NCBI RefSeq assembly: GCF_988243305.1
Contig: NZ_OZ547136.1
Length of the DNA stretch: 64,000 nt
Reading direction: 5' to 3' (one strand)
A model generated the notes under the pieces. It worked only from the letters and a program-made list of their open reading frames with translations. It was not told where the DNA came from and ran no database searches. The position numbers and the translations under genes were made by a program. Every line of letters starts with the position of its first letter. Positions within the stretch are counted from its first letter, which is position 1. Below are positions 16,330 through 31,705 of the stretch, in pieces.

Positions 16330-16466
16330 ATGGCAAAGCCGATCATCACGCTCAATGGCCTAAAAATCGTCATTATGTTGGGAATGCTGGTCATTATTCT
16401 CTGCGGTATCCGTTTTGCCGCCGAGATCATCGTGCCGTTTATTCTCGCATTATTTATTGCTGTTAT
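16330..16466 (+). pseudogene. tqsA: tqsA (AI-2 exporter) 5' fragment, codons 1-45, truncated by the insertion
   Basis: [45 protein letters not shown] then runs into island DNA (IYNLFHITR*). The rest of the gene resumes in frame at 31788. Confidence 0.95.
16458..16466 (+). repeat. attL core TGCTGTTAT
   Basis: Identical 9-mer at 31787-31795. Joining the flanks restores the tqsA reading frame (..FIAV|[10 protein letters not shown]..). Confidence 0.85.
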
Positions 16467-16540
16467 ATATAACTTATTTCACATAACACGTTGATTTAAT
16501 TAAATAATTTTCACCGCAAAAAGTGCCAAAAATCGCAAAA

Positions 16541-16606
16541 TGACTACACCAGTGACTACACCGTTCGGTGCACTGTATGAAACAACGTGGAACAAATAGA
16601 CACAAG
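16541..16606 (+). repeat. Left arm repeat: TGACTACACC x2 followed by 10-bp-phased AACAA units
   Basis: TGACTACACCAGTGACTACACC is identical to 31637-31658. The downstream AACAACGTGGAACAAATAGACACAAG resembles 31678-31705. Candidate integrase/excisionase arm sites. Confidence 0.7.
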
Positions 16607-17231: not shown

Positions 17232-17513
17232 TTACCGCCGCAACCGCTCCGGCTTCTTCCAGTGGTACGTTATTTTCTCCTTCTCCCGATACATCTCCAC
17301 GCGGCGACGGTAGGCCAGCAACTCAAGAACTCTGGTTCGTATGTTGCGCATATCCACGCCATTAAGTTCTATACCATCACGGCGCATCACCTCAGCAACA
17401 ACACGCGCATAGTTTTCGGCTGTCACGCTGTCCGGCTGCGTGGCCTGTTCGTCAGCCTGCTGGCTGATTCCGGCAACGCGGCGGATTAATCCCGTTATTT
17501 CGGCTTCTGTCAT
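17232..17513 (-). CDS. Hypothetical protein (93 aa), last gene of the packaging operon
   Basis: ORF directly downstream of terL (13-nt gap). It is charged with a basic C-terminus, and I recognise no family. Confidence 0.55.
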   Translation of the reverse strand: MTEAEITGLIRRVAGISQQADEQATQPDSVTAENYARVVAEVMRRDGIELNGVDMRNIRTRVLELLAYRRRVEMYREKEKITYHWKKPERLRR

Positions 17514-19188: not shown

Positions 19189-19528
19189 GCTCGTCCTCTT
19201 CTTCTGTTTCCGGTGGATTTTTACGGCGGCTTATCGGGTCAAAACCGAGCAAGGAGGCCATTTTTATCATCACCCTTTCAGCGTCGGATTTTGCGCTTAA
19301 TGCGGGGTTTCTGCTCTCGCCGCCCTGACTGTTAACAATGCTGAACCCGCGCGCCGCAAGGTCTGCAACGGCTTTCCGGTAAATGGAGTAGTTGACACAA
19401 TACAGTTCCAGATTGCTCCAGTCGGCGGGGGTCAGGTCTCCCCGTTCCGCAAGCTGCCGCGATTTTTCCCGCCACTGCTTCACGGCGATGTCATCCAGGT
19501 AGGCGGGGGCTTTCGGTGGTCTTGCCAT
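19172..19528 (-). CDS. terS: Terminase small subunit, P27 family
   Basis: 118 aa. MARPPKAPAYLDDIAVKQWREKSRQLAERGDLTPADWSNLELYCVNYSIYRKA...GFDPISRRK matches the P27/Terminase_4 pattern. It overlaps terL by 17 nt. Confidence 0.85.
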   Translation of the reverse strand: MARPPKAPAYLDDIAVKQWREKSRQLAERGDLTPADWSNLELYCVNYSIYRKAVADLAARGFSIVNSQGGESRNPALSAKSDAERVMIKMASLLGFDPISRRKNPPETEEEDELDRLE

Positions 19529-19651
19529 ACTTATTTTTTCGCCAGATTATTTTTCAAAAAATTCCCGTGCATAAAAATTTGAGGAGGCGTTCGGTGCCCG
19601 GCGGGGTCGGGTTTGTCCTGAAAACGCCCCCCACCCCGTCATACAGCCTCA
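19529..19651 (-). other. Putative cos region (GC-rich segment with nested inverted repeats between the HNH-side genes and terS)
   Basis: Non-coding 123 bp containing GGCGTTCGGTGCCCGGCGGGGTCGGGTTTGTCCTGAAAACGCCCCCCACCCCG. The HNH / gap / TerS arrangement is that of HK97-like cos phages. The cleavage site itself cannot be read from the sequence. Confidence 0.35.
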
Positions 19652-19825
19652 TCAGCGATTGCGGAAACATTCCATAACCTCGCGGTCACGGTCGGTTAAT
19701 CGCTTCGCTGTGATGCGTTCTGCGCGTCCTGACGCTTTATCTTTATGCCCTGTTTCCTGTGTCTTCCATGCGTCACGCTGCCTTATAAGTCCACGGATAA
19801 GGCGGTTTTGTTCCCGCTCATTCAT
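19652..19825 (-). CDS. Small basic hypothetical protein (57 aa), start overlapping the HNH stop
   Basis: The ATG lies inside GCTGATGAATGA, overlapping the HNH stop (coupled arrangement). Product MNEREQNRLIRGLIRQRDAWKTQETGHKDKASGRAERITAKRLTDRDREVMECFRNR is Arg/Lys-rich. It is the 3' third of the 134-aa track ORF, whose remainder overlaps HNH. Confidence 0.4.
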   Translation of the reverse strand: MNEREQNRLIRGLIRQRDAWKTQETGHKDKASGRAERITAKRLTDRDREVMECFRNR

Positions 19826-20258
19826 CAGCGTCATACATCCAGTTATTGCGGTTAGCGGACCGTTCTTCCTCTTCACGAAATCCACCTGCGGCACGCTTGC
19901 TTTTTGTTGCCGGATCAAGCCATTTCGTTTTCTGGTTATGACACGCCTGACACAATGGCTGATGGTTCCATTCGGGCCAGAAGAGAACATCATCGCCGCC
20001 ATCGATGGGGATAATGTGATCCACCACCACGGCGGGCGTATATATCCCCTTCTCAAGGCATCGCACGCATAACGGGTTTTTACTCAGATACATGGCGCGG
20101 TATTTGTCCCACTGTCTGGAGTACCCACGCGCGCGGCGGTGTCCTCGTCTGGCATCCTCTGCACGCCATGCCGCCCGCCTGTGCTCCTCACACTTACCGG
20201 ACTTAACGCGCCTGTTACAGCCTGGTTCTGTACATCGTCTTAATGGTTGCCACGGCAT
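19818..20258 (-). CDS. HNH endonuclease (terminase-associated)
   Basis: 146 aa with CxxC...VDHIIP...N...LCxxCH HNH/zinc motifs (CVRC, DHIIPIDGG, CQACHNQKT), adjacent to the terminase genes. Confidence 0.88.
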   Translation of the reverse strand: MPWQPLRRCTEPGCNRRVKSGKCEEHRRAAWRAEDARRGHRRARGYSRQWDKYRAMYLSKNPLCVRCLEKGIYTPAVVVDHIIPIDGGDDVLFWPEWNHQPLCQACHNQKTKWLDPATKSKRAAGGFREEEERSANRNNWMYDADE

Positions 20259-20554
20259 CAGTACACCCCCACATCACGGTAAGCCGTCCAGAGTGCGCCT
20301 ATCGTCATGGGTACGCGCGTTTTTGCGTTATCCGCGACAATCTGGCGATTTTCATACAGGTGAGCGATAAACATCATGCAGCCAATCTTTATGGCTGGCG
20401 TGAACTCCAGCCCGTCATCAAAGCGCCTGCCTATGTGTATCTGGCACGCCTCAAGCGATGCGGCAATGTATCCGCTGATTAACTGGTCTTCATCGTCGCC
20501 ATCGATGCGGCAATGGAGTTTCACTTCTTCCAGGGTGATAAGTTCTTCTGTCAT
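20258..20554 (-). CDS. gp6-like head-tail connector protein
   Basis: 98 aa. MTEELITLEEVKLHCRIDGDDEDQLISGYIAASLEAC... is the typical Phage_connect_1 N-terminus. The stop overlaps the HNH start (TGATG). Confidence 0.8.
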   Translation of the reverse strand: MTEELITLEEVKLHCRIDGDDEDQLISGYIAASLEACQIHIGRRFDDGLEFTPAIKIGCMMFIAHLYENRQIVADNAKTRVPMTIGALWTAYRDVGVY

Positions 20555-27061: not shown

Positions 27062-27357
27062 TTCTTGCCCCTGAATCCGTTAATCATGGTTTTCAGCTTC
27101 TGGATGTTTGCCCGTGCCCTGGCGTTGCTGGTGGGCACGTTATGCGGCGCGGTCTGTACCAGAGAAAAATCACGCCGGAACTGATAAACAGGCATCACGC
27201 AATCATATTCGTAACCTTCACGGCGGTAGGTTACGCGCCGTTCTTCCACGCCCTTAATCATTACCGTGCCGCCGTACTGGTCGCGGTAAATATCACCGCG
27301 CGTAAATTTAGGGTGAGTGTTGCCACTGGCAGTTAAGCCAGAATATTTAAGTTTCAT
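27058..27357 (-). CDS. Hypothetical protein (99 aa; possibly DUF4222-like)
   Basis: ATGA overlap with the helicase start. GDIYRDQYGGTVMIKGVEERRVTYRREGYEYDCVMPVYQFRRDF resembles a small prophage family, recalled only loosely. Confidence 0.55.
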   Translation of the reverse strand: MKLKYSGLTASGNTHPKFTRGDIYRDQYGGTVMIKGVEERRVTYRREGYEYDCVMPVYQFRRDFSLVQTAPHNVPTSNARARANIQKLKTMINGFRGKK

Positions 27358-30381: not shown

Positions 30382-31611
30382 TTATTTTCTTCTGGCTACT
30401 GGTAGCGTGGTTACGTTTTCATGTGTTCCCGCCAGTATCCCTAACCGCTCCGTCCACATATCCAGCGCATTGCGTTTAGCATCCAGATAACGGGAATGAT
30501 TATAAACTCGCTGCATTCCTGGCATCTGGTGGCCTGTAAGCTGCTCCACGACATGCGGATCAACGCCTAAATCGTTCAGCATGGTTGTAAAGGTGCGCCG
30601 GATGTCATGCAGTGACCAGTGAGGATGATTAAGCCTCCTGTGCGCTAATCTTCCATACTGCGATACGCTGGCCTCCTGTTTCACTTCCCCCAGCAATAAG
30701 CCCGTGTGCCTGTTCTGCTCCACCAGCTGCGTGACGAACGGCAGGATCGCTTCCGGTATGGGCCGGAATATTGCGACCTTCGTTTTGCTGTGCTCCTTCG
30801 GAACGGTCCATAGCATTTCCGTAAAATCCCACTCCCCGATCTCCGATAACCTCAGTTCTACCGTTCTGGCTCCGAAGACAATCAGGAGGCGGATTAACGC
30901 GACGTAGTAAGGGGAGAATATTTTTTTGTCCAGTGCCTGCAATAATTCGCCAAGTTCTTTGTTACTTAAGACACGTTCGCTTATATCCGGTTTTTTCCCA
31001 ACGTCCGCCACGTTCAGATCGTCCAGAACGTTGCTGATTGCATAGCGCCGCCTACGGCAGAACTTAAGCGCCTGTTTGCACGCCTGTAGCACGAATCCGG
31101 CAGTAACAGGCGTTCGCTTTGCCACCTGGTCAAAACAGGCCAGCCAGTGCCGTAGCTCGCATTTATCCAGCGGCATAGCACCAATCTGCTGTATTACGTG
31201 ATTATTAAGTCGCCTTTTCAGGGCGATATAATCCACGCGGTTTTCCTTTACGTAATACTCAAGCCAGTAGGTGAGCGCATCGCCAACCGTTACGGGCTTT
31301 AACGCTTCCTGTACGGTGTAATTCATCTCATGACGTGGATTTTTCCCCTCAGCCAGCCATGTGCGACACTGTGCGGCTTTTTCCCTGGCTGCTTTCAGGC
31401 TCAGATCAGGATAACTTCCCAGCTTAATGCGTTCGGGTCGTGTCTCCCTTCCCGTTCCGGCCCTGTATGTGAAATACCAGGTCAATTTCCCTGATGTTAA
31501 ATATTTCACGCTCAGGTTTCCGCCATCACTATAAAACGTGTTTTTCTCCGCTGGCTTACCATGAAGTTTCCTTAGCAAGGTATCGCTCAGTTTGTTCATT
31601 GCTCTGCTCAC
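30382..31611 (-). CDS. int: Tyrosine recombinase/integrase, P4-type (DUF4102 arm-binding N-terminus)
   Basis: 409 aa. The N-terminal ..LSVKYLTSGKLTWYFTYRAG..IKLGSYPDLSLKAAREKA.. is typical of P4-like integrases. Catalytic residues lie in ..HDIRRTF.. and ..HQMPGMQRVYNHSRY. GTG start at 31611 (SD GAGGGGG), or ATG at 31599. Confidence 0.92.
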   Translation of the reverse strand: MSRAMNKLSDTLLRKLHGKPAEKNTFYSDGGNLSVKYLTSGKLTWYFTYRAGTGRETRPERIKLGSYPDLSLKAAREKAAQCRTWLAEGKNPRHEMNYTVQEALKPVTVGDALTYWLEYYVKENRVDYIALKRRLNNHVIQQIGAMPLDKCELRHWLACFDQVAKRTPVTAGFVLQACKQALKFCRRRRYAISNVLDDLNVADVGKKPDISERVLSNKELGELLQALDKKIFSPYYVALIRLLIVFGARTVELRLSEIGEWDFTEMLWTVPKEHSKTKVAIFRPIPEAILPFVTQLVEQNRHTGLLLGEVKQEASVSQYGRLAHRRLNHPHWSLHDIRRTFTTMLNDLGVDPHVVEQLTGHQMPGMQRVYNHSRYLDAKRNALDMWTERLGILAGTHENVTTLPVARRK

Positions 31612-31636: not shown

Positions 31637-31705
31637 TGACTACACCAGTGACTACACCGATCGTTGCACAAAGGGCTACAACGTGAAACAAGCTGGAACA
31701 AGGAA
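31637..31705 (+). repeat. Right arm repeat: TGACTACACC x2 followed by 10-bp-phased ACAA units
   Basis: The 22-mer is identical to 16541-16562, followed by acaacgtgaa acaagctgga acaagg. It lies between the int start and the attR core. Confidence 0.7.

Follow-up and report, generated by a model that had tools for sequence, protein, structure and literature searches.

EcCIEDL933, a capsid-forming phage-inducible chromosomal island (cf-PICI), is induced by the helper phage HK106 and depends on HK106 tails for its spread (bioRxiv 10.1101/2022.09.08.507074). Mutants of its HNH, TerS and TerL genes each abolish transfer of the island but not its replication (Alqurainy et al., bioRxiv 10.1101/2022.09.08.507074), and in the same study these packaging mutants spared transfer of the phage, helper mutants had the reverse effect, and Southern blots of particle DNA gave a discrete PICI-sized band. 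The DNA of another cf-PICI, KpCIDSM30104, forms concatemers via cohesive ends, no end sequence being given (He et al., bioRxiv 10.1101/2025.02.11.637232). Self-packaging, independence from the helper and cohesive ends are thus already published for this family; the accessible text of the two preprints gives neither the position nor the sequence of a cf-PICI cos site. In phages HK97 and HK106 cos lies between the HNH gene and terS, and HK97 is cut between positions -1 and +1 to leave a 3' extension of 10 nt, its minimal TerS site covering +15 to +29 with an A/T-tract (PMC11331095). P4, the cos-type Staphylococcus aureus pathogenicity islands (SaPIbov5) and the Rpp PICIs (EcCICFT073) are likewise phage satellites with cos packaging, but their cos is either that of the helper or one that the helper TerS reads with Rpp, and they use the helper terminase. 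Here we describe the packaging region of an EcCIEDL933-like cf-PICI of 15.1 kb from Escherichia coli, located in a stretch of 64,000 nucleotides (the window) of contig NZ_OZ547136.1, assembly GCF_988243305.1. Unlike P4, SaPIbov5 and EcCICFT073, this island has its own TerS, TerL and HNH and, as argued below, its own cos.

The genes of the island lie on the minus strand. Positions 19546-19637 of that strand, between the HNH gene and terS, are very probably an HK97-type cos site. A preliminary description of this DNA had proposed a position for the island's cos, between the HNH gene with the small open reading frame (ORF) that follows it and terS, and three independent lines now support that proposal: homology with the mapped cos of HK97, a break at this point in an assembly made from Klebsiella particle DNA, and conservation of the non-coding sequence at the level of the first and second codon positions of terS. 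The arrangement is the one expected for a known family and reveals no new mechanism; what is added to the published work is the position and the anatomy of cos.

Homology with the cos junction of HK97

A nucleotide profile (A2) was built from cf-PICI loci only and compared by nhmmer with both strands of the circularised 40-kb HK97 genome. Its best match spans the cos junction (E 0.0097, 11.0 bits), a score that one of 5000 dinucleotide shuffles of the junction attains, and the profile yields the same match in HK106, whose cos core is identical to that of HK97. The alignment is collinear over 81 profile positions, from the G-run through the T-tract. The G9 run of HK97 with ATCAAATC aligns with the first of four conserved blocks of the island (A to D, Table 1) and is followed by the spacer; ACCGCCGCCAAA, which runs up to the HK97 cut, aligns with block B, GTTTGAATTTAACGC with block C and CTAACCCGATTTTTT with block D. 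HK97, HK106 and the island have the same layout: the G-run comes with an (A)TCAAA-like element, about 20 nt of spacer separate it from a GC-rich segment of the type ACCGNNCGCC... that ends at the mapped or predicted cut, and a T-tract, which in HK97 is the mapped TerS site, lies about 24 nt downstream of the cut. Both HK97 and the island have a terminase with TerL_ATPase and TerL_nuclease domains, presumably HNH-dependent in the island as it is in HK97. The gene order points the same way: HNH, a 57-aa ORF, a gap of 123 bp, terS and terL follow one another, which is the position of cos in HK97-type phages, with HNH at the right genome end and terS at the left.

Read through this alignment, the sense strand would be cut between about 19584 and 19583, and the 10-nt 3' cohesive end, CGAACGCCTC, is predicted at about 19593-19584, both good to a few nt. 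The equivalent of the HK97 TerS site (+15 to +29) is predicted at about 19569-19555. The two sites also differ in several respects. Their identity is 48% over 85 aligned columns, seven of the 10 positions of the predicted overhang differ from the HK97 overhang CGCCGCCAAA, and the island has two T-tract elements where HK97 has one. The TerS families are different as well, PF05119 in the island against a gp1 without Pfam match in HK97, and neither HK97 nor HK106 has a homologue of the 57-aa gene that the island carries between HNH and cos.

Similar layouts are found in other phages whose ends are known or can be read from their records. The 10-nt 3' cohesive end of the Acinetobacter phage fEg-Aba01 (MT344103), CGCCCCCCAT, was determined by PhageTerm and by digestion with heating and cooling (PMC7354433). 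This phage shares with the island the succession HNH, small ORF, cos, terS, and its TerL is 28% identical to that of the island (E 3e-22). It presents a G-run (GGGGGGATGTCAAAAC) plus TCAAAAC, a spacer, and then ...GACAC, the cut and CGCCCCCCAT, which can be lined up by eye with GGCAC followed by CGAACGCCTC in the island and with CGCCCCCCCAAT in Pasteurella Pmp8. Unlike the island, it has a TerS of the Terminase_2 family, an A-tract instead of a T-tract past the cut, and an unrelated small ORF. The record of Clostridium phage PhiS63 carries an 11-nt sequence duplicated at both ends, which we read as its cohesive end, with a GGTGGGG element upstream and two T-tracts downstream. Among the nearest true-phage relatives of the island's TerL (33-36% identity), terL lies within about 400-700 nt of the left end of the records, and one of them, phi105, has an annotated cohesive end.

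Packaged DNA of a Klebsiella relative

The second line of evidence, an indirect one for fixed ends, comes from a sequence assembled from particles. The phage vB_KppS-Ant (LR881103.1, L002) was obtained from a Nextera XT library of particle DNA (PRJEB40148) assembled with SPAdes, and is >99% identical to part of Klebsiella pneumoniae DSM 30104 (PMC8006926). It encodes a capsid, a protease, a portal, HNH, a small ORF, a TerS 84% identical to that of the island, TerL, an integrase and a primase, and this gene content identifies it as the cf-PICI of strain DSM 30104, the element studied as KpCIDSM30104. The contig of 16,548 nt begins 22 nt ahead of terS, runs through terL and across the att junction into int, and ends past the small ORF at ...GGTTTTCAGGAC, that is, exactly at the last base of block A (...TTTTCAGGAC). 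In the chromosome of ATCC 13883, which we take to be the same strain as DSM 30104, the sequence is continuous here, and the 69 nt absent from the contig (L091 2410-2478, around 3123756-3123824 of NZ_KN046818.1) correspond to 19614-19547 of the window. The overhang predicted for the Klebsiella sequence (L091 2431-2440) falls inside this gap, at distances of 21 and 38 nt from where the contig breaks off on either side. Tagmentation drops some tens of nucleotides at true DNA ends, and a contig closed over attP and open at cos is what would be expected of linear molecules with fixed ends that have been tagmented.

The record itself is titled 'Escherichia phage vB_KppS-Ant' and was published as a filamentous ssDNA prophage, with a 768-aa ORF after terL annotated as a tape measure protein. 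Assemblies of 'small phages' from particles that are in fact satellites, as in this case, could be recognised and correctly oriented with the help of the cos blocks. Two other records deserve mention. In the 106.5-kb Klebsiella phage P12620-1 (L084; PQ569648.1 89444-92158), a cf-PICI terS-terL pair (80-82% identical) is fused to unrelated DNA exactly at the start codon of terS, and the record looks like a chimeric assembly. A 1118-nt metagenome contig of a Klebsiella/Enterobacter-type relative (L303, Logan SRR31617695) ends at ...GCCCGGCACC, 1 nt beyond the nick predicted for the lower strand, and is the one example of this.

Conservation of the blocks upstream of terS

Relatives were collected through their TerS from IMG/VR, from one genome per species and from phage records, and the regions upstream of terS were aligned. 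Four blocks of primary sequence are common to Escherichia, Klebsiella, Citrobacter, Enterobacter, Kosakonia, Serratia, Erwinia and Rahnella, and they are also present in Xenorhabdus, Photorhabdus, Proteus, Providencia, Aeromonas, Gilliamella/Frischella and the Pasteurellaceae, so that Enterobacterales, Aeromonas, Orbales and Pasteurellales are covered. Pasteurella Pmp8 and Acinetobacter AbIPP1 also have blocks B, C and D. When 61 distinct loci drawn from many genera are compared, blocks B-C-D (19596-19546) show a mean pairwise column identity of 0.83, to be compared with 0.81, 0.86 and 0.52 for the first, second and third codon positions of terS, 0.49 for the spacer and 0.43 for the leader. 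This sample is rich in Xenorhabdus and its figures are not phylogenetically independent; distant genera show the same pattern. In 62 close relatives just three of the 16 columns of block C are variable. The blocks are kept in sequence but not in structure (see below), which points to a DNA site bound by protein.

Some relatives depart from the common form. In X. hominickii (L130), about 100-130 nt upstream of terS, block A has grown to five tandem GGGGTA units followed by the usual GGGGTATCAAAAATGAC. Single Xenorhabdus genomes (L100-L142, L161-L168) contain many copies of the terS/cos module; X. kozodoii and X. innexi, for instance, each have six or more such loci. In the 'Macca' genome, L156 and L160 have the cos blocks and other loci of the same genome do not.

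Strength of the assignment and alternative explanations

Several observations weigh against the cos assignment or limit its precision. The predicted cut position comes from an alignment whose score is modest (11 bits, with 48% identity to HK97). Neither BLASTP (E 2.4) nor hhalign (probability 0.06%) detects any similarity between the island's TerS and HK97 gp1, and the family of the island's TerS has no solved structure detectable by sequence; since the two proteins are unlike, the transfer of the TerS site to block D is an analogy. When the profile was compared with the mapped cos of fEg-Aba01 and with that of PhiS63, the matches were not significant, and the likeness is by eye only. It is conceivable that the vB_KppS-Ant record was trimmed by its submitters, the paper being silent on the treatment of the ends (PMC8006926). 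Metagenome contigs of relatives mostly cross the site, as integrated copies should, and add no support: one ends 1 nt from the predicted nick and 14 others cross it. Among the Logan/ENA contigs with the small ORF, those of 15-17 kb run from int to terL with cos internal, the short ones cross the site, and their ends do not cluster. The 289 TerS relatives in IMG/VR, with 120 exact motif matches, are mostly prophage predictions that have the site inside the contig and are hence uninformative on ends. Finally, some Pasteurellaceae loci (L152-L155, L157-L159) whose TerS is 67-69% identical lack any cos block in the 175 nt upstream; these loci may have their cos at another place, or a cos of a different type.

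The blocks could alternatively be signals for the expression of terS and terL, such as an internal promoter, a terminator or attenuator, or an element of translational control, with cos elsewhere in the island. They do lie immediately upstream of terS, a stretch rich in A/T and T-runs follows the GC-rich segment, and the RNA of the whole gap folds marginally better than its shuffles (z -1.64; 15/200). On the sense strand, however, neither a sigma-70-like promoter nor an intrinsic-terminator-like site was found in the region, and the combination that makes a terminator (a compact GC-rich hairpin running straight into a U-run, kept as a structure) is absent. Nor do Rfam covariance models match anywhere in 19400-19900 at E <= 1, and RNAalifold on 34 diverse relatives returned no conserved structure (-1.38 kcal/mol), the sole pairing being the G5/C5 run and none of the covariation informative. 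Expression signals would moreover leave unexplained the collinear match to the HK97 cos junction and the break in the particle assembly, and we regard this explanation as very improbable, even if the blocks may double as cos and as expression signal.

The same analyses settle the status of the inverted repeats, which the preliminary description had reported as nested in a GC-rich centre of the gap that gives way to an AT-rich run and terS. The gap of 123 bp and its composition are as described: 19581-19640 has 71.7% GC, when just 0.33% of the island's 60-nt windows attain 70%, and the AT-rich part, 19529-19580, has 25%. The repeats, GGAGGCGTT/AACGCCCCC and CGGGGTCGGG/CCCCACCCCG, exist, but they overlap each other instead of being nested, and neither stands out as significant. 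Their arms are separated by 17-31 nt, the segment taken as single-stranded DNA does not fold better than dinucleotide shuffles (z = +0.54; 134/200 shuffles equal it), and close E. coli variants have an altered GGCGTT arm but no change that would compensate for it. This shuffle-level folding, together with the absence of covariation and of a terminator, rules out the inverted repeats as a signal.

A pac site bound by TerS, from which headful packaging would produce circularly permuted and terminally redundant DNA, would also be found near terS, as pac-phage TerS sites are likewise in or adjoining this gene. This explanation is nevertheless very unlikely on several grounds. An HNH gene adjoining terS is the hallmark of HK97-type cos systems (attributed to Kala 2014 and Quiles-Puchalt 2014), and a cos phage, phi105, is among the relatives of TerL. 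From a headful genome one would expect a circular assembly and not a contig lacking 69 nt, cohesive-end concatemers were reported for KpCIDSM30104, and the Southern band of the EcCIEDL933 study is discrete and PICI-sized (bioRxiv 10.1101/2022.09.08.507074). The last explanation, that the GC-rich segment is a functionless chance feature of a short spacer, agrees with repeats that are at chance level and not conserved and with inner 18 nt that vary freely, but it is barely credible beside flanking blocks A-D conserved like codon positions 1 and 2 across bacterial orders.

Specificity, independence from the helper and a possible mechanism

The preliminary description had further suggested that the cos is specific to the island's own TerS/TerL/HNH set. 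The distribution of the sequence agrees with this: in a comparison with 50,697 phage records, all matches of the 123-bp gap are to cf-PICI-like ones (a fragment from a lysate grown on EDL933, and Pasteurella Pmp7 and Pmp8), and the predicted overhang departs from that of HK106/HK97 as seen above. The claim that packaging is independent of the helper likewise holds, having already been established experimentally for EcCIEDL933 (bioRxiv 10.1101/2022.09.08.507074). Satellite and helper packaging are published as mutually exclusive, and an overhang and a presumed TerS site unlike those of the helper would explain this most simply in physical terms.

Assuming an HK97-type cos at this place, packaging could proceed as follows. 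Induction by the helper would lead to excision of the island at its 23-bp att repeats and to its replication, presumably into concatemers. The late operon would presumably be transcribed through cos, from the capsid, protease, portal and connector genes to HNH, the 57-aa protein, terS and terL. TerS, a protein of the P27 family, would bind blocks C and D, the T-tract elements that lie a short way ahead of its own gene, the allocation of blocks to proteins being our inference. TerL and the HNH protein would then introduce staggered nicks in the GC-rich block B, about 15 bp upstream of the TerS site, leaving the 10-nt 3' overhang CGAACGCCTC if the nick positions taken from HK97 hold. The DNA would probably enter the capsid from terS through attP and the rest of the 15.1 kb to the next cos, which would place the G-run of block A on the side packaged last.

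A right-end G-run and a GC-rich nick region are common to systems with three unrelated TerS families, namely HK97 gp1, Terminase_2 in fEg-Aba01 and P27/Terminase_4 in the island. On this basis one may imagine, quite tentatively and with more doubt than confidence, that HK97-type cos sites are modular: the G-run and nick region would be read by TerL and HNH, a TerS gene and its T-tract would be swapped as a module that provides specificity and insulation from the helper, and the 57-aa protein with its FRNR end would act at cos as a factor of efficiency or discrimination.

Whatever the value of that idea, a concrete cos position and sequence is now proposed for a widespread satellite family, present in about 10% of complete E. 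coli genomes and with relatives across Enterobacterales and Pasteurellales, and blocks A-D offer a short DNA signature for spotting packaging modules of the cf-PICI type.

The 57-aa protein

The ORF between HNH and cos was described beforehand as a basic 57-aa frame starting in the HNH stop region, and so it is: its ATG overlaps the HNH stop by 8 nt (ATGAATGA), and the product contains 12 Arg and 4 Lys, with a pI of 10.7. This ORF is a real gene: it matches PHROG 3173 (small phage protein) over its full length (positions 1-57/57, E 7.9e-37), its amino acids are conserved in many Enterobacterales and most of the variation is at third codon positions. Homologues of 46-57 aa occur in Klebsiella, Enterobacter, Citrobacter, Salmonella, Cronobacter, Erwinia, Rahnella, Hafnia, Proteus and some Xenorhabdus. 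In an alignment of 43 sequences R46, R55, N56 and R57 are invariant, and E3, L9, L13 and the C-terminal FRNR end are nearly so. Pfam has no family for this protein. The AlphaFold2 model is a helix-linker-helix (helices 3-39 and 45-55) with a mean predicted local distance difference test score of 77 and a predicted template modelling score of 0.37, and it has no fold match in the PDB.

The protein is missing from many relatives in which the four cos blocks are all present, namely most Xenorhabdus loci, Citrobacter amalonaticus and the Pasteurellaceae, from which we conclude that it is accessory. No homologue was found in HK97, HK106, fEg-Aba01, AbIPP1, PhiS63 or Pmp8. Acinetobacter AbIPP1 (L087 742-960) and fEg-Aba01 (L295 482-706) carry between HNH and cos a small ORF of 72-74 aa, unrelated in sequence to the 57-aa protein; judging by these sequences, it is the position of a small ORF that recurs and not the protein.

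A function may be deduced from the gene numbers of EcCIEDL933. Its capsid gene is numbered 1786 (He et al., bioRxiv 10.1101/2025.02.11.637232), and 'hypothetical gene 1792' is the one hypothetical of the packaging module, whose mutant showed a severely reduced, though not abolished, transfer that could be complemented (bioRxiv 10.1101/2022.09.08.507074). Counting along the operon from 1786 through protease, portal, head closure, connector and HNH, the 57-aa ORF is probably gene 1792. If this correspondence is right, the protein is probably an accessory factor of one lineage that raises the efficiency of packaging or transfer, possibly by acting at cos.

The island and its genes

The island is inserted in tqsA, which it splits, the 5' fragment of the gene occupying 16330-16494. 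A 23-bp direct repeat, TGACTACACCAGTGACTACACCG, at 16541-16563 and 31637-31659 marks its bounds, the two att repeats being 15,096 bp apart. ORFs and family matches reveal the whole cf-PICI gene set: integrase, regulator, a primase/replication module, capsid, protease, portal, connectors, HNH, TerS and TerL. Tail and lysis genes are absent from the island ORFs, as judged from the ORFs themselves, the family matches and the RefSeq annotation of a 99.4% identical locus. The size of 15.1 kb, the lack of tail and lysis genes and the order int, alpA-type regulator, primase, capsid, protease, portal, connectors, hnh, terS, terL are the same in EcCIEDL933 and the cf-PICI family. The cos region is preceded, as the operon is read, by the portal, prohead protease and major capsid genes, and farther along are the primase, regulators and integrase. 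The HNH-to-terS stretch is carried by 532 of 5426 complete E. coli genomes, and its best matches (99.4% identity) are in Shiga toxin-producing strains other than EDL933. The features around cos are listed in Table 1.

Table 1. Features of the packaging region and of the integrase gene, with positions in the window
Feature	Position	Strand	Evidence or remark
Integrase	30382-31611	-	in the island
Head-tail connector	20258-20554	-	
HNH endonuclease gene, 146 aa, last named gene ahead of cos	19818-20258	-	PF01844 E 1e-8; phrog_144 E 1e-44; RefSeq annotation of 99.4% identical locus
57-aa Arg-rich ORF	19652-19825	-	phrog_3173
Intergenic gap, 123 bp	19529-19651	-	
Block A, G-run + TTTTCAGGAC, in full GGGGTGGGGGGCGTTTTCAGGAC	19615-19637	-	right-end side of cos; kept across genera, mean column identity 0.73
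Spacer, 18 nt, AAACCCGACCCCGCCGGG	19597-19614	-	identity 0.49, like synonymous sites; 14/18 columns vary among E. coli-level relatives
Block B, CACCGAACGCCTCC, predicted cosN	19583-19596	-	profile alignment to HK97 -1/+1 junction
Block C, TCAAATTTTTATGCAC, first T-tract element, left-end side of cos	19567-19582	-	nearly invariant across orders
Block D, GGGAATTTTTTGAAAAATAAT, second T-tract element, predicted TerS recognition site (cosB)	19546-19566	-	HK97 alignment; conservation
Leader including the ribosome-binding region of terS	19529-19545	-	poorly conserved, mean column identity 0.43
terS, small terminase, P27/Terminase_4 family, 118 aa	19172-19528	-	PF05119 E 1e-23; phrog_83
terL, large terminase, 553 aa	17527-19188	-	TerL_ATPase and TerL_nuclease domains

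The cos profile has a weak second match in the island, at 27288-27326 on the minus strand (E 1.4, TTTACGCGCGGTGATATTT), adjoining the replication genes, which is probably due to chance. Directly after terL, the 93-aa ORF at 17232-17513 of the minus strand matches phrog_1561 over its full length (E 3e-56) and is also a gene of the island.

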